Assembly: GCA_044224495.1 (NCBI GenBank)
Contig: JBGAKG010000005.1
Coordinates: forward strand, 236,711 to 300,710
Direction: 5' to 3'
Source of the DNA: Polyangiaceae bacterium
GTDB lineage: Bacteria > Myxococcota_A > Polyangia > Polyangiales > Polyangiaceae
DNA: 64,000 nt
Shown: piece by piece, positions 574 through 61,821 of the stretch
Numbering within the stretch: the stretch's first letter is position 1
Layout of the letters: each line of letters starts with the position of its first letter
Notes under the pieces: generated by a model
What the model was told of the DNA's origin: nothing
Databases searched by the model: none
The model's input: the letters and a program-made list of their open reading frames with translations, nothing else
Made by a program: the position numbers and the translations under genes

Positions 574-1668
574 ATGCTCCGCGCCGATCGCCACGCGACC
601 CCCATCGACCATCACCCGCTACTCGCGATCTGGGAGCTCACCCAGGCCTGCGACCTCGCCTGCGTCCACTGCCGCGCGTGTGCGGTCCCGGGGCGCGATC
701 CCCTCGAGCTCACCACCGCCGAAGGCAAGCGCCTCCTCGACTCGGTCCGCGCGATGGGGACGCCGTTGATGATCCTGACCGGCGGCGATCCGGCGAAACG
801 CCCGGATCTCGTCGAGCTCGTGCGCTACGGCGCCTCGATCGGGCTCATCATGGCCGTCACGCCGTCGGGGACCGGGCTCATGACGCGCGAGCTGCTCGTC
901 GAGCTCCGCGACGCCGGGATGGCCCGGCTCGCCGTCTCGATCGACGGCCCCGACCCTGCCATCCACGATGCGTTCCGCGGCGTCGCCGGCAGCTTCGAGC
1001 ACTGCCAGCGCATCCTGAACGACGCGCGCGAGCTCGGGATCGAGCGCCAGGTCAACACGACGATCGGGCCGCACAACCTCCACGCGCTCCGCGCGATGGC
1101 GGACGTCGTCGCGGCGAGCGGCGCCGTCCTCTGGAGTGTCTTCGTCGTCGTCCCGACGGGGCGCGCCGACACCGCGCTCCTGCCCTCCGCCACCGAGCTC
1201 GAGCGCGCGCTCGAGGAGCTCGTCGGGATCAGCGAGAGCGCCCCCTTCGACGTCAAGACCACCGCCGCCCCGCACTTCCGGCGCCTGCTCCTCGAGCACA
1301 AGGCGAAGGGCCATCCGCTCGGCGTCCTGCGCGACCTCGACGAAGACGGTTCGGTCAAGGGAACGCGCGGCGTGAACGACGGCGTCGGCATGCTCTTCGT
1401 CTCCCACCGCGGCGAGGTGTACCCGAGTGGGTTCCTGCCCCTCTCGGTCGGCAACATTCGCCGCGGAAGCCTCTCGCTGATGTATCGCGAGAGCGATCTC
1501 TTCCGTACCTTGCGCGAAGTGGGAGCTGCGAGCGGCAAGTGTTCCGTCTGCCCCTTCGTCCGCGTGTGCGGCGGCTCGCGCGCGCGCGCCTGGGCGATGG
1601 ACGGACGCGTGGACGGCTCGGACCCGGCCTGCTCGTACGTGCCGAAGGCGTGGACGGGACCGACGTGA
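574..1668 (+). CDS. radical SAM protein with C-terminal SPASM-like Cys cluster
   Basis: 364 aa ORF; CX3CX2C motif (CDLACVHC) near N-terminus, TIM-barrel-like radical SAM core, C-terminal CSVCPF...VCGGSRA...CSY auxiliary cluster motif. Confidence 0.75.
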   Translation: MLRADRHATPIDHHPLLAIWELTQACDLACVHCRACAVPGRDPLELTTAEGKRLLDSVRAMGTPLMILTGGDPAKRPDLVELVRYGASIGLIMAVTPSGTGLMTRELLVELRDAGMARLAVSIDGPDPAIHDAFRGVAGSFEHCQRILNDARELGIERQVNTTIGPHNLHALRAMADVVAASGAVLWSVFVVVPTGRADTALLPSATELERALEELVGISESAPFDVKTTAAPHFRRLLLEHKAKGHPLGVLRDLDEDGSVKGTRGVNDGVGMLFVSHRGEVYPSGFLPLSVGNIRRGSLSLMYRESDLFRTLREVGAASGKCSVCPFVRVCGGSRARAWAMDGRVDGSDPACSYVPKAWTGPT

Positions 1669-2753
1669 GCGGGCGCGGCGCACGAGCGCTTCCGTTCGTC
1701 GCCGCCTCGATCGGGGCCAACCTCGTGCTCGGCATCGTCGGGGGCCTCGGCCGGCTCGGTCTCCTCGATGGCGCGTTCGTGGCACGCGTCGCGTCCACCC
1801 ACGGCCAGCTCATGACGCTCGGGTTCTTCGGCGGTCTCGTCGGGCTCGAGGCCGCGCTCGGCCAGCGCGAGCGCGGCGCGTGGGTGCTCGTGGTCCCCGG
1901 CGCCGCCGTCCTCTCCGGGCTCGGCGCGACCTTCACGCTCGAAGGGTCCGCGATCCTGGCGACGCTCGCCGCCGTCGGCTGGGGTGCGCTCCGCGTGCTC
2001 GCCACGAATCGCCGCTCGGCGCTCGGCGTGGCCTCCGCGGTCGCGCCGGCGCTCCTCTGGGCGACCGGAGCAATCGAGCTCGCGCGGGGCGGGCGGATGA
2101 GCACCACCGTCCCCGCGCTCGCCACCTTTCTCGTCGTCACCATCTTCGGATCGCGCCTCGACACGCGCGAAGCCGAAGAGGCACCCGCAGCGCGCTCCCC
2201 GATCCCGCGCCTCGCTCTCGCGGCGCTCGTCAGCGCCGCGCTCGCGAGGTTCGTCCGGAGCGACGTCGCCGAGCGCGTGCGCGGCGCTTCGCTGCTCCTG
2301 ATCGGCGCGTGGTTCCTCGCTCGCGACGTCGACCCCGCGGCCCTGCGCGCAGGAGGGATCGCGCGCTTCCGCGCTGCGGCTCGGGGAGCGGCGTACCTCT
2401 GGGTGCTCGTCGGCGGTGCGCTCCTCGTGGCAGAAGGTGCGCTCGAAGCCGGCCCCCGCTTCGACGCGGCAGCGCACGCGCTCTTCTTGGGGGTCGCGGT
2501 GGCGATGGTGTTCGCCCAAGCGCCGGTGATGCTGCCGCGGCTCGCGGGGCGCGCGCCCGCGTACGGCCCGGAGCTCGTCGCTCCACTTCTTGCGCTTCAC
2601 GCAGGAATTGCACTCCGCGTTGCGTCCGACTTGGGCTGGCTGCCGACCGCTGGACAGACGCGCAACGTCGGGGCGAGCTTGTCTGCGGCTGCGATCGTGC
2701 TGTTCGGCGCGGCGGTTGCGCGCCGCGCGCGCGCGGTGCACCCGCCGGCATAG
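1665..2753 (+). CDS. polytopic integral membrane protein (hypothetical)
   Basis: GTG at 1665 overlaps radical-SAM stop (GTGA); 362 aa, many predicted TM helices, GC3-rich; the upstream 150-1664 part of the long ORF is an Arg-rich antisense artefact. Confidence 0.5.
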   Translation: MSGRGARALPFVAASIGANLVLGIVGGLGRLGLLDGAFVARVASTHGQLMTLGFFGGLVGLEAALGQRERGAWVLVVPGAAVLSGLGATFTLEGSAILATLAAVGWGALRVLATNRRSALGVASAVAPALLWATGAIELARGGRMSTTVPALATFLVVTIFGSRLDTREAEEAPAARSPIPRLALAALVSAALARFVRSDVAERVRGASLLLIGAWFLARDVDPAALRAGGIARFRAAARGAAYLWVLVGGALLVAEGALEAGPRFDAAAHALFLGVAVAMVFAQAPVMLPRLAGRAPAYGPELVAPLLALHAGIALRVASDLGWLPTAGQTRNVGASLSAAAIVLFGAAVARRARAVHPPA

Positions 2754-2773: not shown

Positions 2774-3496
2774 ATGAACGTCCTTCCCGCCCCCGTCCTT
2801 CCCGCGCTTCGTGCATCACGGTTGTTCGGTGGCCTCGACGAGGACTTGCTCGGCGGATTTGCGCGCGCCGCGCACCGCGCGCGCTACAAGCGCGGCGACT
2901 ACCTCTGGCGGGCGGGTGATCCCGCCGTCGGGATCACGCTCATCGTGTCCGGCCTCGTGAAGGTGTGTCAGCCGATCCGGCCCGGCCAGACGACGATCGT
3001 CGGCATCTTCGGTCCGCGCGAGAGCCTCGGCGACATGGCGTTGGTCTCCGGGCGCGGCTACCCCGCCGACGCGGTCGTGGCGACGGAGTCGCTCGACATC
3101 GTGCGCGTGGAGCGGACCGCAGTCCTCGACGCGATGGGACGCCACGCATCGGTCGGCATGGCGATGAGCCGTTCGCTCGTCGAGCACAGCCAGAAGCTCC
3201 GCGGGAAGATCCAGATCCTCGCCGCGGGCGCGGTCGAGCAACGACTCGCCACGCTCCTCGTGCACCTCGCCGATCGCTTCGGCGACGAGCAGGAGGACGG
3301 CACCACCATCATCCCGGTCGTGCTGTCCCGCACCGAGCTCGCGTGCCTCGTCGGCACCACCGTGGAGACGACGATCCGCGTCATGAGCCGCTGGCAGAAG
3401 GCGGGCTGGATCGAGACGACGGAGGATGGCTTCGTCGTCCGCGACCTCGAGGCGCTCGAGGACGTGGAGCCGGCCTCGAAGGATTCCGCGGCCTGA
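2774..3496 (+). CDS. Crp/Fnr family transcriptional regulator (cNMP-binding domain + C-terminal HTH); candidate NnrR/Dnr-type NO-responsive regulator
   Basis: 240 aa; beta-roll effector domain, C-terminal 'LSRTELACLVGTTVETTIRVMSRWQKAGWI' HTH; GGGGGGAGG RBS 6 nt upstream. Confidence 0.8.
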   Translation: MNVLPAPVLPALRASRLFGGLDEDLLGGFARAAHRARYKRGDYLWRAGDPAVGITLIVSGLVKVCQPIRPGQTTIVGIFGPRESLGDMALVSGRGYPADAVVATESLDIVRVERTAVLDAMGRHASVGMAMSRSLVEHSQKLRGKIQILAAGAVEQRLATLLVHLADRFGDEQEDGTTIIPVVLSRTELACLVGTTVETTIRVMSRWQKAGWIETTEDGFVVRDLEALEDVEPASKDSAA

Positions 3497-3505
3497 CCGC
3501 TGGCG

Positions 3506-3958
3506 TCAGCGAAGCGCATCACCGACGCGCGCCTCCCAGCGCAGCACGCGTGGAAAGAGGTGCACGTCCTCGATCTGGACGTGCCGGTAGAGCGACGCGA
3601 CGAACGGGTGGAGGTCGGCGGCCGCCGTCGACAGCGACGCGGCGTCGTGAAGCTCGCGGAGCATGCCGAGCAGCGCCTCGTGTTCCGCTCGCATCCGGGC
3701 GATCGCCCGGACGAGCGAGCCGCTCGGCTCCCATGCCCCGCTCCGCGCGAGCTCGCGCACGCGCGTGAGCACGAGAGCCTCCTCGTTCCGCAGGTGGGCC
3801 GCCGCGTCGTGCGCGACGGCGCGGGCGAGCGGCACGAGGCGGCGGTGACGCGCGCCATCGAGCCACTCGACCGTGGAGGCGAAGGACACGAGGTCCGCGC
3901 GGGCGCTGGCGTGGCGCGCCTCGACCTCGTCGAGGAGGACGGCGAGCCCGCTCTGCAT
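3506..3958 (-). CDS. hemerythrin-like (HHE cation-binding) domain protein, RIC/DnrN-like
   Basis: ATG at 3958 overlaps stop of upstream cytochrome c gene (ATGA); repeated H-x3-E / HxxxE..H spacing (HDAAAHLRNEE, EHEALLGMLRELHD, HVQIEDVH); upstream part of ORF 3506-4198 is Arg-rich artefact. Confidence 0.55.
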   Translation of the reverse strand: MQSGLAVLLDEVEARHASARADLVSFASTVEWLDGARHRRLVPLARAVAHDAAAHLRNEEALVLTRVRELARSGAWEPSGSLVRAIARMRAEHEALLGMLRELHDAASLSTAAADLHPFVASLYRHVQIEDVHLFPRVLRWEARVGDALR

Positions 3959-4386
3959 CACTTCGCCTTGAACGACCGGATGTAGGTGACGAGCGCGTCG
4001 AGCTCGGGCTTCCCGTCGAGATCCTGGTTCGCCGGCATGGCGGGGGACTTCCCGACCGCGGCGCCGCCGTAGAGGATCGTCTTCTTGATGTCCTCGTCCT
4101 TGACGCTGTCCTGCCAAGCGGCGTTCGTGTAGTCGCGCGGCTTCGGGGTGAGCGCCGCGGCGCCGGGGCCGTCGCCCTTCCCGCTCTCGCCGTGGCACGG
4201 CGCGCAGCGGTTCTTGAAGACCTCCTTCACGTCGGCGGCCGCTGCCTGCGTCGCCGTCGGTGTGCTCGTCGTCTTCGCCGTGGTCGTTCCGCCACCGCCG
4301 CCGCCCGAGCCAGAGGTTCCGTTGTTGCAGGCGACGACGGCGAGCGCCGCGCCGAGACCGATACCGAGGAGAGATGCGAGCTTCAT
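3958..4386 (-). CDS. class I c-type cytochrome lipoprotein (single CXXCH)
   Basis: 142 aa; signal peptide with lipobox (LAVVAC), Gly/Thr-rich linker, 'CAPCHGESGKGDG' heme-binding motif; downstream of nos accessory genes. Confidence 0.75.
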   Translation of the reverse strand: MKLASLLGIGLGAALAVVACNNGTSGSGGGGGGTTTAKTTSTPTATQAAAADVKEVFKNRCAPCHGESGKGDGPGAAALTPKPRDYTNAAWQDSVKDEDIKKTILYGGAAVGKSPAMPANQDLDGKPELDALVTYIRSFKAK

Positions 4387-4420
4387 GAGGAGTACTTTGG
4401 GGGCATGCGTCAGGTCGAGC

Positions 4421-4436
4421 GATGACGGATGTCAGG
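4421..4436. promoter_or_regulatory. third TGAC-N4-GTCA box (GATGAC-GGAT-GTCAGG) upstream of cytochrome c/hemerythrin genes
   Basis: Same half-sites as the nosZ boxes; lies 35-50 nt upstream of cytochrome c ATG (4386) in the nosY-cytc spacer. Confidence 0.4.
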
Positions 4437-4447
4437 TCGGCGCAGAA

Positions 4448-5290
4448 TCAGCCGACGAGATCGTCCTTCTCGAGCCGCCGCGTCGCGCCGAGCATCGCGA
4501 GCGCGCCGACGGCGAGCGGCCAGCCCACGCCGATCGCGAGCGTGAGGCGGGCGCCGAGCGAGTTCGCGAGCCAGAAGCCGACCGGACCGAGCACCGAGAG
4601 CTCGGGATCGACGCCGGAGAGGATCGCGAGCCGCGCCGACTCGACCGGGTTCAGCGCCGCGAGAGCGAAGACCACCTGCGGCGTGAGCCGCAGCTTCAGC
4701 AGAACGCCGATGAGCGCGAAGTCGTGGAGCGCGCTCGCGAACAGCCATGCGACGAGCACGTAGACCGTCGCGCGCTCGGGCGTGCGCGCGAGCGACGAGA
4801 GCCAGAAGCCGAGCCCGACGTAGGCGAAGCTCAGCGCGAACGACACGAGCATCGTGCGCCCGACGAGCGGGAGCATGGTCGTCTCCCCCGTCACCGCACC
4901 CGCGATCCAGATCCCGAGGAGCAGGACGAACAGCGGACCGACGATCACGACGAGGCGCGCGACGACGGCCGCCGACATCCAGTCCGCGCGGCGACAAGGC
5001 TGCGAGAGGACGAGCTCGAAGAAGCCCGTCGTGCGCGAACGAACGACGGACTGCCCGGTGGAGACGAGCGCCACGAGCGGGAGCACGAGCACGACCGCGT
5101 TCGCCATGTTGAGGACGACGCGGGACAACCCCGTGAAGCCGAGCACCGAGGACTCGCGCAAGCCGAGCCAGAGGAACGCGCCGAAGACGAGGACGTAGGC
5201 GGTGGCGGTGAAGACCATCCAGCGCGAGCGGAGAGCGTCGGCGAGCTCCAGCCGAAGAAGGACGCGAAACGGTTTGGCCACGGTGCTCAT
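4448..5290 (-). CDS. nosY: ABC-2 type permease NosY
   Basis: 280 aa, six-TM ABC-2 permease; ATG overlaps nosL stop (ATGA); position in nosDF(L)Y block. Confidence 0.75.
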   Translation of the reverse strand: MSTVAKPFRVLLRLELADALRSRWMVFTATAYVLVFGAFLWLGLRESSVLGFTGLSRVVLNMANAVVLVLPLVALVSTGQSVVRSRTTGFFELVLSQPCRRADWMSAAVVARLVVIVGPLFVLLLGIWIAGAVTGETTMLPLVGRTMLVSFALSFAYVGLGFWLSSLARTPERATVYVLVAWLFASALHDFALIGVLLKLRLTPQVVFALAALNPVESARLAILSGVDPELSVLGPVGFWLANSLGARLTLAIGVGWPLAVGALAMLGATRRLEKDDLVG

Positions 5291-5688
5291 CGGGATCCCC
5301 TCGCTTTCGCGGACGACTCCACGTCCGCCCAGCTCGCGCTGCCAGCCGTCGTGGCCGCCCAGCCGAAGTCCATCGGTGTCGTCGCGCCCGGGCTGAAACG
5401 CGCCGAACGCGCGTCGACCCAGTGGCCGACGTCGTCACGCACCCACATCGCACGCACGCTCGGGTGGCGGTCGGCGACGTAGGTCGCCATGCACCCGGGG
5501 TCGTCGAAGTAGGCGCGCGTTCCGTCGGTCGTGGTGAGCTGCGCGGCGTAGCGCGGATCGCTGACCAGCATCGCGCAGCTCCCGCACGCTTGCTTGCCCC
5601 ACACCGGATCCTTGGGCGAAGCGCCGTCCTCGCACGACGTGACCGCGAGCGCGAGGCCGAGCGCGGCCCAGGCCAGGCGCGCGCTCAC
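5287..5688 (-). CDS. nosL: copper-binding lipoprotein NosL
   Basis: GTG at 5688 overlaps nosF stop (GTGA); lipoprotein signal VSARLAWAALGLALAVTSC; 'YFDDPGCM', 'CGSCAM' motifs; GC3-rich; 133 aa. Confidence 0.55.
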   Translation of the reverse strand: MSARLAWAALGLALAVTSCEDGASPKDPVWGKQACGSCAMLVSDPRYAAQLTTTDGTRAYFDDPGCMATYVADRHPSVRAMWVRDDVGHWVDARSARFSPGATTPMDFGWAATTAGSASWADVESSAKARGSR

Positions 5689-6383
5689 GACAACAGCCGG
5701 AGCCGGGGCTCCGCCTCGCGGGGCTTGCGCGCGGGCGCTTTCGAAGCGGTCTGGCGCTCGTCGCGCACGACCTTCCCATCGCGAAACTCGATGACGCGGT
5801 CGACGAGCTCCGCGACGTCCTCGCCGCGGTGCGAGCACAGGATCGTCAGGTGCTCCGACGGGCGCTGCCCGAGCCGCTCGATGAACGCGGCGCGGGCGTC
5901 GGGGTCCAGGTTCGCCGTGGGCTCGTCGCACACGAGGATCTCGGCGGGCGCCGCGAGCGCGAGCGCGGCGAGGAGCTTCTGCTTCATGCCTCCGGACAAA
6001 TCCCGGAAGCGCGTCGACGCGCAGCGCTCGACGTCGAGCCCGAGCGTCTTCGCCATCGCGCGCGCCGGCTCGTCGGCGATCCCACGCAAGGCGCAGACGG
6101 CGCGGATGACCTCCGACACGGGCGCCTCGATCGGCGGCGCGATCTGGGGGACGTACGCGATGCTCCGCAGCGCGACCTCCGGTCGCTGCGCGACGTCGAC
6201 CCCGCGTACCGTCACGACGCCGTCGACCCGGATGAGTCCGAGGATCGCGCGGAGGAGCGTCGTCTTCCCCGAGCCGTTCGCGCCGATGAAGGCGACGCGC
6301 TCGCCGCCGGCGAGCCGGAGCGAGACGTCGGCGAGCGCGACGACGGGTCCGAACTTCTTGCTCACGTGCTGGACCTCGATCAC
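5685..6383 (-). CDS. nosF: ABC transporter ATP-binding protein NosF
   Basis: 232 aa; Walker A GANGSGKT, signature LSGGMKQK, Walker B ILVCDEP; ATG overlaps nosD stop. Confidence 0.85.
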   Translation of the reverse strand: MIEVQHVSKKFGPVVALADVSLRLAGGERVAFIGANGSGKTTLLRAILGLIRVDGVVTVRGVDVAQRPEVALRSIAYVPQIAPPIEAPVSEVIRAVCALRGIADEPARAMAKTLGLDVERCASTRFRDLSGGMKQKLLAALALAAPAEILVCDEPTANLDPDARAAFIERLGQRPSEHLTILCSHRGEDVAELVDRVIEFRDGKVVRDERQTASKAPARKPREAEPRLRLLS

Positions 6384-7714
6384 TTGCTCCTCCTCTCGAA
6401 ACCATCCATCGCCGGGGACTTGTCGACGAGCATCCGATGCGTCGCCAGGACCGGTGCCGCCTGCGCGACCGCGTCCACGAGCGACATCGCCGCCGTCCCC
6501 CGGAAGTACATGAGCGACGGGTGCGCGTCGGTCAGCTCGCCCGAGAGCTGCTTCACCTCGAACGGGACGTCCCCCCGCCCGTCGCCGTCCAGGTCGTACC
6601 CCGCGTAGTCGGACCAGTGGTTCCCCTCGAACTCGACGTTCATGGCGTCGCCCCCGCCCTCGACCTCGGCCACCGTGACGTTCTCGCGGAGGTCGTTCCC
6701 GGTGAAGCGGACGCCGTCCTCGGAGCTGTGGAACCGGAGCCCAACGTCGTTCAGGGCGATCACGTTCGCGTCGAACCGCACCGGCATCGTCGGCGCGCGC
6801 GGGCTGCGATCGAGGTAGACCCCGACCGTGTTTCCCACGAGCCAGTTCCGCGCGAGCGTGACGGAATCACTCTCTTTGAAGCCAATCCCGACACCGGCCG
6901 GTCCCCGCGCACCCGCGAGCACGTTGTCTTCGACCCGGACGTGATCGCTGTACATGACGAAGATGCCGACGACGTTCTCGCGAACGTCCTCGCCGTGGAT
7001 GTAGGCGTCGTGCGCGTACATGAGGTGCGCGCCGTAGCGGCTGTGACGGACGACGTTCGCGTCGAGCTCGACGCGCCGCGAGTACCAGACGACCAAGTCC
7101 CGCGAGTGATCCAGCACGCAGCTCCGCACGACCGAGTCGGAGGACTCCCAGAGCTTGATGCCGTCGCCGCGGAGCTCCTCGTCGTCGCCGGGCCCGATCA
7201 CGCGGACGCGCTCGAGCGTGCAGTGCGGACACGGACCGAGCGAGACCCCGAACAGGGTGTCCTCGACCCGGGCGTCGGCGATCCGGACGCGCGCGCCTTT
7301 GACCTTGATCCCCGCGTCTTCGGCGGTGTGTCGATGCCCCGAGTGCCGGACGACCACGTTCTCGACGGTGACGTCGTCCGCTTCGATCATGAGCACGGTG
7401 CCGCGCCCGGTGCCCTCGAGCTCTGCGCCGAGCTCGCCGCGGAGCGTGAGCGAGCGCTTGATCGTGAAGTCCCCCCGGTACGTGTGGCCGCGGAGCCAGA
7501 TGACGTCGGGCCCGCTGGCGAGCGCCGCGGCCAGGCTCGCCTCGTCCTCCGCCACGAAGACCCCGCCGGGCGCGGTCCGCGCGACGGGGTTCGCGTCGGC
7601 CGGGAGCGGTGCCGGCCCGACGAGCGTCGGGCTCGCGGCGTGGGCTCGGTAGAGCACCATCGTCGCGAGCGCCACGCCACCGAGCATCCAGAGAGCACGC
7701 TTCCGGCCGAGCAC
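6380..7714 (-). CDS. nosD: periplasmic copper-binding protein NosD (right-handed beta-helix)
   Basis: 444 aa; signal peptide; repeated beta-helix segments (NVV..HS, GIKV, NVVR.) typical of NosD/CASH domain. Confidence 0.85.
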   Translation of the reverse strand: MLGRKRALWMLGGVALATMVLYRAHAASPTLVGPAPLPADANPVARTAPGGVFVAEDEASLAAALASGPDVIWLRGHTYRGDFTIKRSLTLRGELGAELEGTGRGTVLMIEADDVTVENVVVRHSGHRHTAEDAGIKVKGARVRIADARVEDTLFGVSLGPCPHCTLERVRVIGPGDDEELRGDGIKLWESSDSVVRSCVLDHSRDLVVWYSRRVELDANVVRHSRYGAHLMYAHDAYIHGEDVRENVVGIFVMYSDHVRVEDNVLAGARGPAGVGIGFKESDSVTLARNWLVGNTVGVYLDRSPRAPTMPVRFDANVIALNDVGLRFHSSEDGVRFTGNDLRENVTVAEVEGGGDAMNVEFEGNHWSDYAGYDLDGDGRGDVPFEVKQLSGELTDAHPSLMYFRGTAAMSLVDAVAQAAPVLATHRMLVDKSPAMDGFERRSK

Positions 7715-7715
7715 G

Positions 7716-8447
7716 TCAGGCCTCCTTCGGGCGGTGCGGACCGACCAGCGAGCGCGGACACACCGTGCCGCAGGCCGCCTTGTCGGCGCAGTCGTTGCAG
7801 ACCTTCCGCCGCACCAACGTCGCTGCCAAGAGGAGCGCGACGCCCCCCATCGCGACCCAGAAGCCTGCCGAGGGGGTCGCGAACGTCATGAACTGCCCGA
7901 TCTGCCCGTTGCCGAACAGCTGGGGCGTGAACGGCGGGATGCGGAGCGGTGCATGCGGATCCAGGGAGTGCCCAAAATGGTACAGCCAGTAGAAGGCATC
8001 ACCCAGGAACCCGAGCGGGAACGCGAGCCCGACCGCCGTCAGGAGCTTTCCCGCGCGACGCCCGGCGAGCAGCGCGACGCCGAGCACCAGCACGCCGACG
8101 AGGCCGATGCCCCACCCGGCGAGCTCGCGCTCGTGCTTCGCTGCGTCGTCGAGGCTCGCCATGCCGATGTAGTGGTTCAGCATGTTGATCTCGTGTACGT
8201 CGCCCCCCATCCCCGTGAGCGAGATCGTCAGATGAAGGCCGTGGGGGTACTGCGGCGCGTAGAGCGTGAAGTCCCACCACGGCAGGAAGAACGAGCCCGC
8301 ATAGAGCGCGATCGCGCTCACCGCGAGCAGCACCACGGCCCAACGCAGGCCGGTGTGCCGCTTGGGCGTCCCAGCCTGCGCCGGCACCACCGCCAGGTGG
8401 CGGTGGCCGTCGCTCTTCTCTTCGACCGCGGTCGTCATGGCGTTCAC
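7716..8447 (-). CDS. nosB: NosB-like integral membrane protein (clade II nos accessory) with C-terminal Cys cluster
   Basis: 243 aa, multiple TM helices, C-terminal CNDCADKAACGTVCP; ATG overlaps nosZ stop (ATGA); immediately downstream of Sec-type nosZ as in clade II clusters. Confidence 0.55.
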   Translation of the reverse strand: MNAMTTAVEEKSDGHRHLAVVPAQAGTPKRHTGLRWAVVLLAVSAIALYAGSFFLPWWDFTLYAPQYPHGLHLTISLTGMGGDVHEINMLNHYIGMASLDDAAKHERELAGWGIGLVGVLVLGVALLAGRRAGKLLTAVGLAFPLGFLGDAFYWLYHFGHSLDPHAPLRIPPFTPQLFGNGQIGQFMTFATPSAGFWVAMGGVALLLAATLVRRKVCNDCADKAACGTVCPRSLVGPHRPKEA

Positions 8448-10435
8448 TTCTTCGGCTTGACGAGCAGGTAGCCGACCATCTCGAGGTGGAGCGCCGAGCA
8501 GAACTCGGTGCAGTAGAACGGATAGGCACCCGGCATGTCGGCCTTGAACGAGATGTTCTCGTGCTTGCCGGGCTCGAGGCTCACGTTGACGTTGTAGAGG
8601 TTGACCTCGAAGCCGTGGACCTGGTCCTCGGCCTGCTCGAGGCTGGTGACGTGGATGTTGACGGTGTCGCCCTCGTCCACCTCGATTCGGTCCGGCGTGA
8701 AGTGGCTACGGACCGCCGTCATGTAGACGTCGACCACGTTGCCGTTGCGGACGATCCGCTCCTTGCCGCCCTCGGTCGCGTTCGGGTCCTTCTGGTCGGT
8801 GATGACGTTCGTCCCCGGCGCGTACATCTTCAGCGGCTTCAGCTTGTCGGTCTTGATCATCTGCGAGTAGTGGGGCTCGCCGAAGCCGATCGGCATGTCG
8901 TAGAGGAGCCGCATCTTCTCGCCCGTGATGTCGATGAGCTGGAAGTTCTGCGGGTAGAGCGGACCGACGCCGGTGAAGCGGTCGATCGACATCTTGTTCA
9001 TTGCGACGACGTACTTGCCGTCGGGGCTGACGGTGTCGCCCTCGGCCGCGAGGATGTGTCCGATGTTGTAGTGGACCGAGATCTTCTCGATCTGCTTCAT
9101 GTCCTTGACGCTCCACTTCACGACCTTGCTCTCGAGGAAGAGCGAGGTGTAGCCGTTCATCTGGTCGTCGAAGACCGTGTGGAGCGGGCCGAGGCCGAGC
9201 TCGACCTGACCGCGGATCGAATCCTTGAAGGGGAGGATCGGGATGCCGTAGGCGTCCTTGCCCTCGAACTTCTTCTGCGCGATGAGGTCCTTGACCTTGG
9301 AGAACTCGTACAGCGTCGCGTGCGTGTCGAGCTTGCCGCCGACGACGACCGCGGTGCCGTCCGGCGTCACGTCGCAGCCGTGCGGGCTCTTCGGCTCGCC
9401 GATGAGCGTGAGGACGCCCTCTTCGCCGCTCACCGCGAGCGGGAGGACCTTCATCCCCTTGATCGTGACGGCCTTGCCGGCGTTCACGAGCTCCTCGGCT
9501 TTGCGCCAGTTGATGACGTGGAGGTAGTCCATGTCGTTCTGGGAGGCGCCGCTCTCGATCGCCGGCTTGCCCTCGAGCGTGCCGCCGATCGCCATCTCGG
9601 TGTTGAACGAGTTGATGAACACCCAACCGTCCGAGACGAGCTTGCCCGCGTCGGCGAGATCCTGCGTGTACGGCGGGAGCTCGACGCCGAAGCTCTTCTC
9701 CGGATCGATCCGCTTCTTCGCGCGGTCGAACTTCCAGAACATGGCGAGCCCGCGCCACTTCTCCTTGTACTGCTCGATCGGCACGTACTCGCGCCCGAGC
9801 GGCGACGGGTACTGCGTCGTCTCGATCACGTAGTCGGTGTTCGGCGTCACGAACGCGCCGCCGTGGTCGCTCGCGACGAGCGGGTTGGCGACGATCTGCT
9901 TCGTGACGAAGTCCTCGAGATCGACGACCGCGACGCGCGCGTTCGCCTTGTCGTTCACGAAGAGGAACTGGCCGTCGTAGTCACCCTTCGTCTCGGAGAG
10001 GTTCGGGTGGTGAACGTCGGCCCACGTGATTTTGTGGTTTCCCTGCGCACCTCCGGCGATGACCTTGTCCGTCTCGCCGCCGTAGCCGTAGCCCTGCCAC
10101 GGCTCGGGGGTGAACACGCCGATGAGCTTCAAGAGGCGCATCGACGGGACACCGATCGCGGCGACCTGGCCGGAGTGGCCGCCCGACGCGAAGATCATGT
10201 AGTCGTCCTTCTTGCCGGTCGGGACGTAGGTCTTGAGCGCCCCTTCGACGTCGGCCTCGGTGAGACCGCGGGCCGCCATCAAGTCCTTGATGTTGGCCGA
10301 CGCGCCGAGGTTCGAGCTCCCGCCTTGCTGTTCCTTCGCCTGTTGCTCTGCCTTGTTCGTGCACGACGCCCCGGCGACGGTCCCCGCGCCGATCACGATG
10401 AGCGCCAGCGCTCCTCGTTTCCACCAAGAACCCAT
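8444..10435 (-). CDS. nosZ: nitrous-oxide reductase NosZ, Sec-dependent (clade II) type
   Basis: 663 aa from ATG 10435 (GGAGG 7 nt upstream); N-terminal Sec/lipoprotein-like signal MGSWWKRGALALIVIGAGTVAGASC with no twin-Arg motif; seven-bladed propeller region; C-terminal cupredoxin CuA site '...YCTEFCSALHLEM'; no C-terminal cytochrome domain. Confidence 0.9.
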   Translation of the reverse strand: MGSWWKRGALALIVIGAGTVAGASCTNKAEQQAKEQQGGSSNLGASANIKDLMAARGLTEADVEGALKTYVPTGKKDDYMIFASGGHSGQVAAIGVPSMRLLKLIGVFTPEPWQGYGYGGETDKVIAGGAQGNHKITWADVHHPNLSETKGDYDGQFLFVNDKANARVAVVDLEDFVTKQIVANPLVASDHGGAFVTPNTDYVIETTQYPSPLGREYVPIEQYKEKWRGLAMFWKFDRAKKRIDPEKSFGVELPPYTQDLADAGKLVSDGWVFINSFNTEMAIGGTLEGKPAIESGASQNDMDYLHVINWRKAEELVNAGKAVTIKGMKVLPLAVSGEEGVLTLIGEPKSPHGCDVTPDGTAVVVGGKLDTHATLYEFSKVKDLIAQKKFEGKDAYGIPILPFKDSIRGQVELGLGPLHTVFDDQMNGYTSLFLESKVVKWSVKDMKQIEKISVHYNIGHILAAEGDTVSPDGKYVVAMNKMSIDRFTGVGPLYPQNFQLIDITGEKMRLLYDMPIGFGEPHYSQMIKTDKLKPLKMYAPGTNVITDQKDPNATEGGKERIVRNGNVVDVYMTAVRSHFTPDRIEVDEGDTVNIHVTSLEQAEDQVHGFEVNLYNVNVSLEPGKHENISFKADMPGAYPFYCTEFCSALHLEMVGYLLVKPKK

Positions 10436-10516
10436 GATTGCCTCCACCCTGCACAGCGCCACCACGGCACCCTCGTCGCAGGTGAGGAGACAGTGCGGTC
10501 CGCGCAGGGCGATCGC

Positions 10517-10532
10517 CATGACGGGTGTCATC
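10517..10532. promoter_or_regulatory. FNR/Dnr-like palindromic box cATGAC-GGGT-GTCATc in nosZ / nosB2 divergent promoter
   Basis: Perfect inverted repeat TGAC-N4-GTCA, one mismatch per half-site from TTGAT-N4-ATCAA; located 82-97 nt upstream of nosZ ATG. Confidence 0.45.
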
Positions 10533-10582
10533 TCCAAACACGCGTTCGGCGCAAACCTTGCGCCCGAACGAGCACGGGGACC

Positions 10583-10598
10583 GATGACGGGCGTCATC
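10583..10598. promoter_or_regulatory. second FNR/Dnr-like box GATGAC-GGGC-GTCATC in the same divergent promoter
   Basis: Perfect 6-4-6 inverted repeat, 66 bp from the first copy, 34-49 nt upstream of nosB-paralog ATG 10632. Confidence 0.45.
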
Positions 10599-10631
10599 GA
10601 TCCCGGCGCGCGAACGGCTCACCCTCGGTCC

Positions 10632-11282
10632 ATGAAGGACCGCGAGCTCTCGGGGTTTTATCGCTTCCTCGCCCAGCCGTTGTTCTTCCGCGCGCGCTTC
10701 GTCGTCGGTGCGCTGAGCGTGCTGTTGGCGGCGGCCTTCGCGTTCCCCCTGTGGCGGGTCGAAATCGCTGCGCCGCAATATCCGCGGGGGCTCACGCTCG
10801 AGGTCTACGCCCACGCGCTGGAGAGCGGCCACGGCGGAGCCGACCTCCGCGATCTGAACGTGCTCCATCAGTTCTTCGGGATGCGCGCGCTCGACGACGG
10901 CGCGCTCGGCGATCTCGCGTGGCTCCCGTTCGCGCTCGGGTTGCTCGTGATCTTGGGCCTGCGTTGCGCGGCGATCGGCGAGGTCCGCTCGCTGATCGAT
11001 CTGGTGGTGACGAGCCTGTACGTCGCGGCGTTCACGCTCGTGCGCTTCGCGCTCGTGCTGCGGCGCTTCGGGGAGCTCGATCCCGACGCTCCGGTGAAGG
11101 TGGCGCCGTTCACGCCGCCGATGGTCGGGACCGCGACCGCAGGCGAAGTGACCTCGCACGCGTCGTTCGGGCTCGGGACCTGGTTCGCGCTCGCGTTCGG
11201 CCTCGGGATCCTCGCCACGCTCGTCGTCCACTTGGTGCGCGGGCGCCGCGCCCAGGCGGCCGAGCCGGAGCAGAAGGCGTGA
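10632..11282 (+). CDS. NosB-like membrane protein, paralog of 7716-8447
   Basis: 216 aa from ATG 10632 (alt. ATG 10584 lies inside the FNR-like box); clear paralogy to nosB product (APQYP.GL, LN.LH.F.GM, LDD, DPxAP..PFTP blocks conserved); divergent from nosZ. Confidence 0.6.
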   Translation: MKDRELSGFYRFLAQPLFFRARFVVGALSVLLAAAFAFPLWRVEIAAPQYPRGLTLEVYAHALESGHGGADLRDLNVLHQFFGMRALDDGALGDLAWLPFALGLLVILGLRCAAIGEVRSLIDLVVTSLYVAAFTLVRFALVLRRFGELDPDAPVKVAPFTPPMVGTATAGEVTSHASFGLGTWFALAFGLGILATLVVHLVRGRRAQAAEPEQKA

Positions 11283-12187
11283 AGCGCCTCGCACTCGCGC
11301 TCGCGTTCGGCTTCGTCGCGGCCTGCGATCGGACGACGCCCTCCCCGGAGACGAAGGCGCGCGAGAATGACGCTGCCGCGATGGCGACGGCACCAGCCGC
11401 GCCGGCATGCACGCCACGGAGCGCGGAGAAGCTCGGGTTCCCGTTCCTCCGCATCTGTCCGCCCGGCGAGGCAGGTTTCTGGATCAACGCGGCGCCGATG
11501 GGGTGCTCCGCCGGCGACCACGACTCCATCCGTTGTCCGCTCGTGACGGCGGTCGCGCACCCGGCCCGTCAGCCCGGCGCAGCGATCCCTTCGAGCGCCG
11601 CCGCGGTGATCGACGCGGAGACGGCGGCGCGCCTCTGCTACTTCCGGATGGGCGGTCACCTCGCGTCGCGCGCCGAGCGCGCGAAGGCGCGGGCGGCAGC
11701 GGGGTTGGTCACCGTCCTCGTGACCGAGTCCGAGTCGGCCGCCGGGCGCTTCGGCTTCGACGAGCTCCCGGAGTGGGTCTTCGAGGAGAGCGGCGCGTCC
11801 TGCGAGAACGCTCTCCCGAGCGAGTCGTGCCACACCGGGCTCTACCCTTCGACGGCGCGGAGCGCGGCGGTACCGTGGACCGCCGTGCGCGCGTGCGAGG
11901 CCACGTTCGGAGCGCGCCGGCCCGACGGGCTCTCGCTCGTCGCGCTGGGCGAGCGGTGCCCTTCCCCGCCGCTCGCGCTCGACGGCGGTGCGCTCGCGAC
12001 GGTTCCGTGCGCGCTACGAAGCGCCGCCACCGATCCGAACGGCATCCCGTCGCCGGCCGCGTTCACGTTCGCCTGCCGGCGCCCGGCGCCGAGCGCGCAC
12101 CCCGAGGGCGTCGCGCCCGACGTCGCCGCCTACCGCTGCGTGATCCCCGAGAACGCCCTCGGCACGTTCGACGTGCCGGGGCGCTGA
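11279..12187 (+). CDS. Cys-rich secreted lipoprotein, hypothetical; possible FGE/SUMF1-like fold (weak)
   Basis: GTG 11279 overlaps nosB-paralog stop (GTGA); lipoprotein signal VKRLALALAFGFVAAC; GC3-rich throughout; 'CYFRMGG' and 'PEWVFEE' segments loosely resemble FGE-domain motifs; 12 Cys. Confidence 0.5.
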   Translation: MKRLALALAFGFVAACDRTTPSPETKARENDAAAMATAPAAPACTPRSAEKLGFPFLRICPPGEAGFWINAAPMGCSAGDHDSIRCPLVTAVAHPARQPGAAIPSSAAAVIDAETAARLCYFRMGGHLASRAERAKARAAAGLVTVLVTESESAAGRFGFDELPEWVFEESGASCENALPSESCHTGLYPSTARSAAVPWTAVRACEATFGARRPDGLSLVALGERCPSPPLALDGGALATVPCALRSAATDPNGIPSPAAFTFACRRPAPSAHPEGVAPDVAAYRCVIPENALGTFDVPGR

Positions 12188-12209
12188 GTCTGCACTCCGA
12201 ACCGAGCGC

Positions 12210-12794
12210 TCACTTCTTCGGCGGGAGGATCACCGTGTCGACGACGTGCACGATGCCGTTCATCACCCGAATGGAGGCGACGATCGTGGCGTCGTCGACC
12301 ATGGTCTTTCCGTCCTTCACGTGGAACGTGACCTTGGTCCCGTCCGCCATCGCGAGCGTCTGCCCGTCCTTCATGTCCTTCGTCTCGAGGATCGGGACCG
12401 CGGCGTGGTGCTGGAGGATGAGCTTCAGGTCGGTCCGGTGCTCGGGCTTCATGAGGTCGTCGAGCGTGCCCTTCGGCAGCTTGTCGAACGCCGCGTTCGT
12501 GGGCGCGAACACCGTGTAGACGCCGCCCGGGCTCGCGAGGGACTCGACCAGATCGGCGGTCTGGAGCGCCGTCACGAGGGTCGTGTGATCCTTCGAGCCG
12601 ACCGCGACGTCGACGACGGTCTTCTCGTTGTCGGGCTTCGGGGCGGCGGGGGCGGTCGCCGTGGGCGCCGCGGTCGTTGCGACGGCAGCGGATTTCGCCG
12701 AGGCCGACCCCGCGGCCGCGGACGTCTCGGATTTGTCTTCACAGGCGACGGCAGCGGTGAGGAGCAGGACAGCGACGAACGAAAACGTCTTCAT
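12210..12794 (-). CDS. fasciclin (FAS1) domain lipoprotein
   Basis: 194 aa from ATG 12794 (GGGAGG RBS); lipobox LTAAVAC; 'TVFAPTNAAF', 'ILQHH' FAS1 motifs. Confidence 0.75.
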   Translation of the reverse strand: MKTFSFVAVLLLTAAVACEDKSETSAAAGSASAKSAAVATTAAPTATAPAAPKPDNEKTVVDVAVGSKDHTTLVTALQTADLVESLASPGGVYTVFAPTNAAFDKLPKGTLDDLMKPEHRTDLKLILQHHAAVPILETKDMKDGQTLAMADGTKVTFHVKDGKTMVDDATIVASIRVMNGIVHVVDTVILPPKK

Positions 12795-12859
12795 GGAGGG
12801 ACCTCCCGGTGCGGAAGCCTCGCCATGTGGCGCCCCAGGCGCCATGACGGACGTCAGGG

Positions 12860-14467
12860 TCACCCCCGCGCGCGCTTCAGCCGCCGCATGAGCCCACCGC
12901 CGACCTCCTCGAGCTCCGGGCTCCGAAGGGCCCAGGCCGCCACCCCGAACCCTGCCGCGAACGCGACGCCAGCCACCAGACCCGGCAGGAGCGTGCCGTG
13001 GCCCGAGAGAAGCCGTGCGCTCCCCCACCCCATCGCGCCGCCAATGCCAGACGCCGCCAGCGTGCGGGCCACCGAGCCTCCAATCTCCGCCCCTTCGAGC
13101 CCGCGGAGCTTCCGCCGCGCCGCGATCCAGAGGAGCAGCATCTGCACGAAGCTCGAGCCCGCGACCGCCGCGCTGATCCCGGCGTGGCCCATCGGCCCCC
13201 GCAGCCCGACCGCGAGCGCGATGAACACGAGCAAGTCGATCACGCTCACCACGACCGGGGTCTTCGTGTCGCCCATCGCGTGGAACACCGGCACGAGCTG
13301 GCGCACCGCCGACACGGTCCAGATCGCGCCGCCCTGCCAGAGGAGCGAGCGCGCAGTCTCGGTCGTGGCGCGCGCGTCGAAGTGCCCGCGCTGGAACAAG
13401 AGCGCCACGAGCGGCTCACCCAGCGCGACCAGCGCCACGCTGCACGGGATCGCGACGAAGAGCGCGAGCCGCATCCCGTGCGCCCACGTCTTTCGGACCT
13501 CGTCGATCGCGCCCTTCGCCGCGAGCGCGCTGAGCGAGGGGAGCGCCGCCGTCGAGATCGCCATCACGAAGATGCCCTGCGGGAAGTCGCAGAGGCGCAT
13601 CGCCCACGAGAACCAGCTCTGCGGTCCCTCGCCGAGCTCGGAGAGAAACCGGCGCGAGATCACGAGGTCGACGTAGTAGACGCCGATGCCGAACGTCATC
13701 GGTAGGAGGCGCCGAAGCGCCTCGCGCACGCCCGGATCGGCGAAGTCGAGCTTCGGCCGCCCGAAGAACCCAATCGCGCGGAGCGCGGGCCACTGCGCGA
13801 CGACCTGGAGCGCGCCACCCACGAGCGCGCCGACCGCGAGCGCGAGCGAACGGTCGATGCCGGCCGCTGCCAGCGGTCCGGGGAGCGCGAACGCCGCGAT
13901 CAGGAACGCGACGTTCAGGAGCGCCGGGGCGAACGCCGCGACGCCGAAGCGCCGCTTCGCGTTGAGCGCCGCCATGCCGAGCGCGGCGGTCCCCATGAAG
14001 AAGATGTACGGGAACACCCAGCGCGTGAGCTCCACCGTGCGCTCGAACTGGGCGCCCTCGTAGCCGCCCGCGAAGAGCGCGGTGAGCGGACGCGCGAAGA
14101 CGACGCCCAAGATCGTGACGACGGTGAGCGCGAGGAGCGACGCGCCGCGGATGCGCGCGAAGAACGCCTTTCCCGCCTCGTCGCCCTCGGTCGCGAGCTT
14201 GCCGGAGAGCACCGGAACGACCGCGCTCGAGATCGCGCCCTCGCCCAGGATCTGGCGGAGCGCGTTCGGGATCGTGAAGGCGACGAAGAACGCGTCGGTC
14301 TCGGCGCGCCCGAAGATCGCGGCGAGCGCCATGTCGCGCCCGAGCCCGAGCACGCGCGACGCCAGCGTGCCGGCGCCGATGATGCCCGCGCGCCCGGCGA
14401 GCTTCTTCCGCTCCGCCGCTCCCTCGGCGCTGGCGTCCTTCGGCTCGCCACGAGCGGGCTCGGTCAT
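12860..14467 (-). CDS. murJ: lipid II flippase MurJ (MviN)
   Basis: 535 aa from ATG 14467; 14-TM MOP-superfamily product with conserved N-terminal 'GTLASRVLGLGRDMALAAIFG' block; 12860-14806 ORF upstream part is Arg-rich artefact. Confidence 0.85.
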   Translation of the reverse strand: MTEPARGEPKDASAEGAAERKKLAGRAGIIGAGTLASRVLGLGRDMALAAIFGRAETDAFFVAFTIPNALRQILGEGAISSAVVPVLSGKLATEGDEAGKAFFARIRGASLLALTVVTILGVVFARPLTALFAGGYEGAQFERTVELTRWVFPYIFFMGTAALGMAALNAKRRFGVAAFAPALLNVAFLIAAFALPGPLAAAGIDRSLALAVGALVGGALQVVAQWPALRAIGFFGRPKLDFADPGVREALRRLLPMTFGIGVYYVDLVISRRFLSELGEGPQSWFSWAMRLCDFPQGIFVMAISTAALPSLSALAAKGAIDEVRKTWAHGMRLALFVAIPCSVALVALGEPLVALLFQRGHFDARATTETARSLLWQGGAIWTVSAVRQLVPVFHAMGDTKTPVVVSVIDLLVFIALAVGLRGPMGHAGISAAVAGSSFVQMLLLWIAARRKLRGLEGAEIGGSVARTLAASGIGGAMGWGSARLLSGHGTLLPGLVAGVAFAAGFGVAAWALRSPELEEVGGGLMRRLKRARG

Positions 14468-14469
14468 CG

Positions 14470-14829
14470 TCACTCCCGCGGCACCGGCTCGTGCGCCGCC
14501 ATCGGCGAGCCCGGCGCGCAGGCCGCGCACTGACAGAGCGAGCGCAGGTACCGGTACGAGTAGAGCCCGGTGTCGTGCCCGTCGAACCACTTGATCGCGA
14601 GCGCGTAGTTGCCGACGAGCGAGATGTCGTCGATCTCGAGCGCGATGCCGTCGCGCTCCTGGAACGCGATCGTTCCGGAGTGCCCCTGGCACCCCGCGCA
14701 CGGGCAGTAGCCGCGCAGGATCACGTGCGGGAGCACGGAGCGGTGCCCGTCGCCCCACTCGATCTCGGTGGAGGTCGCGCCGCGCGGCGAGCGGACGGCT
14801 TTGCAACGGAAGCGGGGATCGGTGGTCAC
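14470..14829 (-). CDS. DUF971 / gamma-butyrobetaine hydroxylase N-terminal-like domain protein
   Basis: 119 aa; CPCAGC..C motif, 'LAIKWFDGHDTGLYSYRYLR' typical of DUF971; ATG overlaps upstream kinase stop. Confidence 0.6.
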   Translation of the reverse strand: MTTDPRFRCKAVRSPRGATSTEIEWGDGHRSVLPHVILRGYCPCAGCQGHSGTIAFQERDGIALEIDDISLVGNYALAIKWFDGHDTGLYSYRYLRSLCQCAACAPGSPMAAHEPVPRE

Positions 14830-17930: not shown

Positions 17931-18662
17931 TCAGCGGGGCTCGCCGCGCAGCTCGTCCTTGGTGCCGAGCAGGATGTAGAGGCGGCGGAGGGCATCCAGA
18001 TCGGGGATCTCGACCTTCTCGCCCGAGATGCGCAGGTAGCCCTGCTCGCGGAGGCGCTGGACGCTCCGCTTCACGGTGTCCACGTCGAGCCCGACGCGGC
18101 TGGAGAGCTCGACCGGCGAGACCTGAATCTCGGCCAGGTTCTCGGTGGTGCCAGCGCGGTGCGCGATCTTGAGGAGCGCGCTGACGACCTTGAACTGGTT
18201 GTCGCGGAGGAGGAGGACCTCGATCTGGTCCTCGGCGTCGCGGACGCGACGGATGAGCTGCTCCATCACGCGGATGGCGACGGGCGGGTAGTTGACGAGC
18301 ATCGACCGGAACGTGCGGCGGTCCAGCGCGAGGGCGACCCCGTCGGTCAGGGCCACCGCGGTCGAGTTGCGGGCCGCTGCGTCGAGCAGGGCCGACTCGC
18401 CGAACAGATCGCCGGGCTTCAGCACGATGAGGCTGCGCTCGATCATGCGCACGCGCTTGAGGAGACGGACACGCCCCTCCTGGAGCAAGAACGCGTCGCC
18501 GGCGGCTTCGCCCTCCTTGAAGAGGGTCTCGCCCGCCGCGAACGACCGCCCGTACTTCTGGACGAGCCGGTTCTTCTCGCTCTCTTCGAGCGCGGTGTCC
18601 TCGTCCTCGCCACGCCGGGAATCCGCCATCGGTCCGCGAATGTACCCGGCTTTGGGCGCCAC
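17931..18662 (-). CDS. Crp/Fnr family transcriptional regulator
   Basis: 243 aa; cNMP-binding beta-roll (GETLFKEGEAAGDAFLLQEGRV), C-terminal HTH. Confidence 0.8.
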   Translation of the reverse strand: MAPKAGYIRGPMADSRRGEDEDTALEESEKNRLVQKYGRSFAAGETLFKEGEAAGDAFLLQEGRVRLLKRVRMIERSLIVLKPGDLFGESALLDAAARNSTAVALTDGVALALDRRTFRSMLVNYPPVAIRVMEQLIRRVRDAEDQIEVLLLRDNQFKVVSALLKIAHRAGTTENLAEIQVSPVELSSRVGLDVDTVKRSVQRLREQGYLRISGEKVEIPDLDALRRLYILLGTKDELRGEPR

Positions 18663-61674: not shown

Positions 61675-61821
61675 GGGAACCTGCCTTTCGACGAGGCCCC
61701 ATTGCGAGCGCCGTGCCGGTCGCTCTCCGCCCGAATTTCCCGCGAAATTCGCGGTAACCGTGCGCTCGTGAACGCCGGCAGCGCTCCACTTCGGAGCGGA
61801 GCGCTCCATCCGTGATCGCCG

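Follow-up and report, generated by a model that had tools for sequence, protein, structure and literature searches.

In a 64-kb stretch of Polyangiaceae DNA (the window, by which we mean the whole stretch analysed), the intergenic region between the divergent genes nosZ and nosB2 carries two perfect palindromes of the form ATGAC-N4-GTCAT. We consider these likely to be sites for a locally encoded Crp/Fnr-type activator of the nos genes, the best candidate being the product of the gene at 2774-3496. The argument draws on the frequency and placement of the motif in the window, on a -10-like hexamer held at a fixed distance from it and on its enrichment around homologues of the candidate gene in other genomes.

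Palindromic boxes and promoter geometry

The nosZ/nosB2 intergenic region spans 10436-10631 (196 bp). An earlier note on this DNA had described two perfect palindromes there, 66 bp apart (start to start), and on re-reading all letters agree. The note spoke of three copies of the motif; the window holds four, and a fifth lies just upstream of window position 1. The four exact sites within the window are:

10518-10531, centre 10524.5: box 1, ATGACGGGTGTCAT, perfect 5+5 arms (ATGAC/GTCAT), proposed class II activator site of nosZ
10584-10597, centre 10590.5: box 2, ATGACGGGCGTCAT, proposed class II site of nosB2
4422-4435, centre 4428.5: box 3, ATGACGGATGTCAG, between the nosY stop and the cytochrome c start
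12844-12857, centre 12850.5: box 4, ATGACGGACGTCAG, between the murJ stop and the fasciclin start

Positions 10517-10532 read CATGACGGGTGTCATC and positions 10583-10598 read GATGACGGGCGTCATC, the latter with perfect 6+6 arms that can be extended to 7+7 (CGATGAC/GTCATCG, 10582-10599). All four boxes share the plus-strand reading ATGACGGRYGTCA. Each half-site had been placed one base away from the FNR/Dnr consensus; over the 5-bp half-site two bases differ (ATGAC versus TTGAT).

The exact motif TGAC-N4-GTCA is more frequent than expected for DNA of this composition (70.5% G+C). Four sites are present in the window against 0.68 expected, a number reached in none of 100 shuffles, and the 196-bp region holds two against about 0.002 expected. 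All four are intergenic and fall inside 8.5 kb around the nos cluster. Sites with one mismatch are near chance in the window (27 against 18.6 expected; 4 of 100 shuffles reached 27), and none of them combines a -10 hexamer in register with a gene start. Canonical FNR boxes (TTGAY-N4-RTCAA) do not rise above chance in the window. The fifth box, ATGACGTCCGTCAG, belongs to the same genome and was located in an overlapping assembly (L115, 6523-6536), 692-705 bp upstream of window position 1. It occupies the divergent ytkA/nnrS region, where the nnrS ATG is 41.5 bp away and the ytkA ATG 42.5 bp. Since it precedes nnrS, the operon that ends in the candidate regulator gene carries a box of its own, which implies that this operon would be autoregulated.

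A hexamer of the form nAnnnT is found exactly 23-28 nt past the 14-mer, towards the adjacent gene, at all four boxes of the window:

10490-10495, minus strand: CACTGT, -10-like hexamer of the predicted nosZ promoter, in register with box 1
10620-10625, plus strand: CACCCT, -10-like hexamer of the predicted nosB2 promoter, in register with box 2
4394-4399, minus strand: CAAAGT, -10-like hexamer of the predicted cytochrome c promoter, in register with box 3
12816-12821, minus strand: GAGGCT, -10-like hexamer of the predicted fasciclin promoter, in register with box 4

If the hexamer is taken as the -10 element (-12 to -7), the centre of each box falls at -41.5, the class II position. The earlier proposal that the boxes are positioned for class II activation thus extends to all four, with the transcription starts being predictions. 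For nosZ, whose ATG is 89.5 bp from the centre of box 1, the predicted start at about 10483 gives a 48-nt leader with a GGAGG ribosome-binding site; for the fasciclin gene (56.5 bp from the centre of box 4) the start at about 12809 gives a 15-nt leader, also with GGAGG. From the centre of box 2 to the ATG of nosB2 it is exactly 41.5 bp, so that the predicted start, 10632, is the A of the ATG itself. For the cytochrome c gene, the distance between the centre of box 3 and the ATG at 4386 is 42.5 bp, and this ATG comes one nucleotide after the predicted start at 4387. Neither of these two genes has a ribosome-binding site, and both mRNAs are predicted to be leaderless. A consensus scan of the intergenic region found no sigma70 -35/-10 promoter, as expected of activator-dependent promoters.

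The surrounding genes were mapped from the frame-specific G+C content at third codon positions (GC3), Pfam and NCBIfam matches and the gene calls of the overlapping assembly:

1-570, plus strand: nnrS, C-terminal part
574-1668, plus strand: radical-SAM gene, TIGR04053 (NCBIfam)
1665-2753, plus strand: membrane protein gene
2774-3496, plus strand: Crp/Fnr regulator gene, cNMP_binding and HTH_Crp_2 domains
3506-3958, minus strand: hemerythrin-domain protein gene, downstream of the cytochrome c gene
3958-4386, minus strand: cytochrome c gene
4448-5290, minus strand: nosY
5287-5688, minus strand: nosL
5685-6383, minus strand: nosF
6380-7714, minus strand: nosD
7716-8447, minus strand: nosB (NosB-like)
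8444-10435, minus strand: nosZ, ATG at 10435, nos_propeller and cupredoxin domains (Pfam)
10632-11282, plus strand: nosB2, NosB/YwiC-like membrane protein paralogue
about 11279-12187, plus strand: lipoprotein gene, 3' of nosB2
12210-12794, minus strand: fasciclin-domain lipoprotein gene
12860-14806, minus strand: murJ

nosZ heads the order nosZ-nosB-nosD-nosF-nosL-nosY, and its product has a Sec/lipoprotein-type signal peptide, as clade II enzymes do. The nosB2 product is 31.6% identical to that of the NosB-like gene at 7716-8447. A longer nosZ open reading frame (ORF), starting from an ATG inside box 2 (10597), was rejected: 10436-10597 has no GC3 coding signal, the ribosome-binding site and the lipoprotein signal peptide belong to the 10435 start, and alignments of the relatives begin at residue 4-12 of the short form. 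The plus-strand ORF 11407-12519 was rejected as well, as an antisense shadow of the minus-strand fasciclin lipoprotein gene.

The candidate regulator and its association with the motif

The Crp/Fnr gene that had been noticed beside nnrS is indeed one by its domains, and is the last gene of an nnrS-rSAM-membrane-crp operon (rSAM, radical SAM). The recognition helix of its product reads TVETTIR and includes E198 and R202. We collected 161 homologues at E <= 1e-10, the named relatives being Myxococcota; among the best 120 of the 161, which were examined, ET(T/V/A)IR is found in 115 and ETTIR in 71. Residues E198, T199, I201 and R202 are invariant in 28 orthologues. The first 60 residues are free of cysteine, and the entire protein has only two; since the N-terminal cysteine cluster is absent, the protein is not an FNR-type oxygen sensor. 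Nor does it have the hallmarks of CRP: Val occupies the position of Arg180, and the Arg-Thr/Ser pair that binds the cyclic-nucleotide phosphate is missing. In a profile alignment the invariant Y96 and the near-invariant P97 align with the Arg-Thr of the GlxR phosphate-binding cassette, which makes cAMP an improbable effector. Among solved structures, a profile search ranked actinobacterial CRP/GlxR closest (E about 1e-25), followed by FNR (1.5e-14) and DNR (5e-14); similarity to DNR is at the superfamily level only. Judged by these comparisons, the family is a separate branch of the Crp/Fnr superfamily.

The invariant I201 sits at the position of CRP Gly184 (helix V-E-T-T-I-R), which we take to be that of Ser212 in FNR, a residue that presumably contacts the T of the FNR site. 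The Ile would then pair with A:T at the outer base, which is T in sites of FNR, DNR and HcpR1 and G in those of CRP. The Val in place of Arg at position 180 fits the absence of a CRP-type G from the boxes under the rule of Rodionov et al. (2005; PMC1274295).

The link between this gene and the motif, which the earlier note had proposed from one locus, holds in other genomes. We gathered 804 kb of DNA around regulator homologues from assemblies and a metagenome scan. It contains 50 matches to TGAC-N4-GTCA, compared with a mean of 10.25 in first-order Markov simulations (range 5-18), an approximately five-fold enrichment. The 328 kb that surround NosZ relatives lacking the regulator gene contain 4 matches for 5.45 expected. 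The motif is thus enriched around homologues of 2774-3496 and not around NosZ relatives that lack it.

The 47 unique sites yield 94 half-sites, and the position just outside TGAC is taken by A in 66 of them, by C in 19, by G in 8 and by T in 1; the GAC/GTC core that had been called distinctive is therefore real and extends to the flanking A/T. TGAC/GTCA itself is invariant across genomes whose regulators share 30-65% identity. The 4-bp spacer is asymmetric, being ATCC/GGAT in 13 of the 47 sites, and ATCC reads along the direction of transcription in most in-register promoters. At offset 23, nAnnnT occurs in 29 of 94 site-directions, against a background of about 2.5 (0-9 at every other offset). 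Ten of these 29 in-register promoters have an ATG or GTG 40.5-42.5 bp from the box centre, in most cases the start of a long ORF with high GC3. At many loci such start codons, like those of nosB2 and the cytochrome c gene in the window, lack a ribosome-binding site. These features predict a set of class II promoters that give leaderless mRNAs in Myxococcota.

Where the regulator gene lies beside nos, that is in the window and in loci L025 and L032, a box precedes nosZ in all three cases. Among NosZ-relative loci with a readable nosZ upstream region, none has a box and none has a regulator homologue within 10 kb. L025 has the gene order of the window in its nos cluster, a regulator that is 65% identical and the cytochrome c box; its nosZ box has the -10 hexamer at offset 24, and a degenerate nosB2 box has the hexamer in register and the ATG 42.5 bp from the box centre. 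Across the loci, boxes also precede cytochrome c genes (L025-27, L035), fasciclin genes (L028, L045), radical-SAM genes (L028, L089, L096), hemerythrin genes (L030, L037, L044, L110) and a COX3-like plus NorC-like pair (L048), with HlyIII also among the downstream genes. In at least seven loci the box stands before the crp homologue itself (L043, L050, L073, L089, L092, L097, L102).

Some further genes were observed next to boxes. The L072 box precedes a 1159-residue protein that resembles, by eye, a molybdopterin oxidoreductase. A conserved protein of ~1035-1060 residues (L028 3770-6889, L039 from about 881, L098 from about 10750) repeatedly adjoins boxes, fasciclin and hemerythrin genes and crp homologues; the L028 copy has no precomputed Pfam hit on record and the L039 copy carries several CxxCH haem c motifs. 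From this recurrent neighbourhood it is probably a member of the regulon.

Proposed mechanism and alternative readings

Crp/Fnr dimers read a TGA-N6-TCA core with Glu181 and Arg185 (CRP numbering). In the mechanism that we propose, a homodimeric activator of this type, most likely the 2774-3496 product, would recognize both palindromes of the intergenic region; of the two promoters lying back to back there, each would have its -35 region overlapped by one box. From a centre at -41.5, box 1 would drive nosZ-nosBDFLY, and box 2, at the same position, would drive a leaderless mRNA of nosB2 plus the lipoprotein gene. The recognized word would be (A>C)TGAC-N4-GTCA(T>G), with the TGA-N6-TCA core read by E198 and R202. 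The same protein would act at the boxes before the cytochrome c/hemerythrin genes and the fasciclin gene, and at the one between ytkA and the divergent nnrS-rSAM-membrane-crp operon that encodes it, giving positive autoregulation. Together these would form a small regulon for nitrogen-oxide respiration and stress. We infer binding, activation (not repression) and the transcription starts from sequence. The signal is probably nitric oxide (NO) or low oxygen, judged from the target genes: nnrS, hemerythrin, nor-like and nos genes resemble the NO-responsive DNR/NnrR regulons, which is a hint by analogy. It seems doubtful, if conceivable, that the subfamily is a dedicated sensor of N2O itself, or of another nitrogen oxide through a new cofactor, that it turns on clade II N2O reductase from leaderless class II promoters and that it has displaced an ancestral sigma54 circuit in some lineages.

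Several observations weigh against this mechanism. The -10-like hexamers of the two nos promoters, CACTGT and CACCCT, are weak. The nnrS ATG, 41.5 bp from the fifth box, also has GGAGG just upstream, a misfit with a leaderless start. The spacer of box 2 faces nosZ instead of nosB2, unlike that of most sites. The intergenic region holds more than the two boxes, namely a sigma54-like element and a second conserved palindrome (both described below). Homologues of one subgroup (L071-L087) share the ETTIR helix but have no boxes nearby, and the helix alone therefore does not predict local sites. Finally, the loci were picked by the regulator gene, so another co-inherited factor could conceivably be involved.

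We regard it as unlikely that the boxes, although of Crp/Fnr type, are recognized by a different paralogue from another part of the genome. Myxobacterial genomes carry many such genes, two adjacent Crp-type genes occur in the L028 and P0041/P0048 contexts, and the link between regulator and motif rests on co-localization only. The window itself has a second Crp/Fnr-family gene (17931-18662, minus strand, with TPR and HTH_25 genes as neighbours). However, the helix of its product reads DVDTVKR, without the Glu/Arg pair, which makes it an improbable regulator of the boxes. Boxes stand directly upstream of 2774-3496 homologues in many loci, and the enrichment tracks this gene rather than nosZ; both observations favour the 2774-3496 product.

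It is quite improbable that the 2774-3496 protein, bound at the boxes, represses or blocks transcription, for example by covering the promoter until a signal frees it. Repression as well as activation is possible from a site that overlaps the -35 region, and a negative relation between Crp/Fnr and nosZ expression has been suggested for a clade II organism (PMC11539149). However, there is no recognizable -35 or consensus sigma70 promoter, and the rigid -41.5 register over 29 promoters is a class II hallmark, whereas repressors need no fixed phase.

Sigma54-dependent transcription, with the palindromes acting as enhancer-binding-protein sites or as elements of a long leader starting from the sigma54-like element at 10465-10480, has to be weighed because of the relatives. 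NosZ of the window is 70-81% identical to its relatives in Myxococcales/Archangiaceae-like metagenome-assembled genomes (MAGs), and the exact motif is absent upstream of nosZ in 22 of them. This does not refute the site in the window; those relatives have sigma54 or FNR-box promoters instead. Most of the 18 relatives examined have a clear sigma54 -24/-12 promoter before nosZ (e.g. TGGCACGGCGGTCGCA), 40-60 nt upstream of the gene in L004-L023 and accompanied by GTTTCA/TGAAAC-like upstream repeats. It is often preceded by a gene whose product ends in a Fis-type helix-turn-helix, typical of NtrC-like activators. Where nosB2 lies alongside, a separate sigma54 promoter (TGGCG-N6-TTGCA) stands just a few nucleotides ahead of its ATG. 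In the closest relative (L001, 81%) and in L002, the nosZ upstream region instead has a pair of canonical FNR-type boxes, spaced 22 bp apart (TTGAC-N4-GTCAA, TTGAT-N4-ATCAA and variants). As read from these upstream regions, one orthologous gene pair is served by three promoter logics, sigma54, canonical FNR box and ATGAC box, and the nosZ promoter would therefore have been rewired at least twice within the clade.

The sigma54-related features of the window are:

10465-10480, plus strand: sigma54-like -24/-12 element CGGCACCCTCGTCGCA, correct GG-N10-GC spacing
56331-57203, minus strand: sigma54-activator gene
59300-60217, minus strand: sigma54-activator gene

The element at 10465-10480, the sole candidate for a sigma54 nos promoter, lies inside the predicted nosZ leader and points away from nosZ, towards nosB2. 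It ranks fourth among the matches of the window, but its 12.2 bits fall below the 12.4-22.7 of all 19 training promoters from the relatives, and it would place both boxes downstream of the start. The GTTTCA/TGAAAC-type repeats of the relatives are absent from the window, no activator gene lies within 45 kb of the nosZ/nosB2 region, and the boxes of other genomes stand at promoters without a -24/-12 element. We thus give this explanation very little weight; the element is probably a relic or a chance match. The best sigma54-type match of the window, CGGCACGGCGCTCGCA (61703-61718, minus strand, 17.7 bits), is close to the two activator genes.

One more element lies between the boxes:

10548-10564: palindrome GGCGCAAaccTTGCGCC, 7-3-7, GGCGCAA-N3-TTGCGCC

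Its centre lies 31.5 bp from that of box 1; L032 (17322-17338) has the same palindrome upstream of its only nosZ box, again with 31.5 bp between the two centres. A second regulator may use it as a site, near -73 of the nosZ promoter. Similar elements, GCGCAA-N3..5-TTGCGC, were seen in L004, L005, L028/29, L030 and L056/57.

High-GC intergenic DNA is rich in palindromes and, as RNA, box 1 and box 2 can pair with each other, but a reading of the boxes as chance matches or as structural DNA or RNA hairpins (terminators, REP-like repeats) that involve no regulatory protein is in effect refuted by the shuffles, the enrichment, the flanking base and the -10 register, the stems being of 5-7 bp only, the conserved feature across genomes being the sequence and not the pairing, and the region having no T-tract terminator, no Rfam family match and no significant RNA fold (z-score -1.28).

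Relation to known regulators and significance

In clade I organisms nos genes are controlled by DNR, NnrR and FixK2. The boxes described here share with those of FNR, DNR, NnrR and FixK (TTGAT-N4-ATCAA; nosZ/nosR of Pseudomonas, Paracoccus and Bradyrhizobium) the 5-N4-5 inverted repeat, the TGA-N6-TCA core and a centre at -41.5, which here is predicted. The recognition helix of the candidate Crp/Fnr protein likewise has Glu and Arg, and the targets are of the same kind: boxes precede nosZ, nnrS, NorC-like, COX3-like and hemerythrin genes. Like DNR and NnrR, which do without the Fe-S (iron-sulphur) cysteines of FNR (PMC1274295), the window regulator has no such cysteines. The differences lie in the half-site and in the protein. 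The outer base is A (70%) or C, with T at 1%, so that the canonical TTGAT half-site is not the one used by this box family, and the inner base is C and not T, being fixed as C by the search definition TGAC-N4-GTCA. The V-E-T-T-I-R helix carries an Ile, many target mRNAs are predicted to be leaderless, and in the profile search the family is no closer to DNR or FNR than to actinobacterial CRP/GlxR.

Another closely similar motif is the box that was predicted for HcpR1, wyTTGACnnnnGTCAArw, in Geobacter, Desulfuromonas, Desulfotalea and cyanobacteria (Rodionov et al., 2005; PMC1274295). Its TGAC-N4-GTCA core is identical, and it too is a prediction from comparative genomics for a regulator without the cysteine cluster that governs nitrogen-oxide stress genes. 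The flanks differ, TT/AA in HcpR1 and (c)A/T(g) here, as do the targets: hcp and frdX there, and nos, cytochrome c, hemerythrin, fasciclin, nnrS, radical-SAM and crp genes here, with no hcp seen among the annotated genes downstream of boxes. A search of the searchable literature for the exact ATGAC-N4-GTCAT gave no match; the sole returns were the HcpR1 TTGAC-N4-GTCAA box and a study of the Pseudomonas aeruginosa katA promoter.

A recent study suggested that Crp/Fnr proteins take part in nos control in a thermophilic organism of clade II (PMC11539149). According to the passages of that paper that cite them, NssA, NssB and NssC of Wolinella succinogenes and NssR of Campylobacter are Crp/Fnr regulators of clade II nos, nap and nrf genes. 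They likewise exert Crp/Fnr control over a clade II nos cluster (Sec-type NosZ, nosB-containing), and in those citing passages the consensus searched for upstream of nosZ and nosB is TTGA-N6-TCAA. The Nss proteins belong to a different phylum, act on a different half-site, have no demonstrated orthology to the regulator described here and, as cited there, respond to nitrate, NO or N2O. Within the window's own clade, the relatives L004-L023 (Archangiaceae/Myxococcales MAGs) have the same divergent nosB2/nosZ order and a near-leaderless nosB2, but the promoter type is swapped: theirs are TGGCAC-N5-TCGCA (nosZ) and TGGCG-N6-TTGCA (nosB2), without a Crp box. From these comparisons, the recognized word ATGAC-N4-GTCAT and the regulator subfamily appear to be new, and class II activation of denitrification genes by Crp/Fnr proteins is known.

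The mechanism itself is textbook, and specialists may find it moderately surprising; more noteworthy are the strict association with predicted leaderless starts and the promoter turnover among close relatives. NosZ relatives at 70-81% identity with three promoter logics make this a clear case of regulatory turnover. The recognition code of Crp/Fnr proteins would gain a data point, a discriminator A paired with a helix Ile.

Organisms with clade II NosZ, among them Myxococcota of soils and sediments, are regarded as important sinks of the greenhouse gas N2O. To our knowledge, almost nothing is known of how their nos genes are regulated, because the NosR/DNR circuits of the model denitrifiers are missing there. 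The locus supplies a concrete cis-element (ATGAC-N4-GTCAT at a predicted -41.5), a candidate regulator family (helix ETTIR) and a proposed core regulon of nosZ, nosB2, cytochrome c/hemerythrin, fasciclin and nnrS-rSAM-crp. Should the subfamily turn out to sense N2O or another nitrogen oxide, sigma54, FNR box and ATGAC box would form a natural set of three in which to compare the regulatory wiring of soil N2O sinks.

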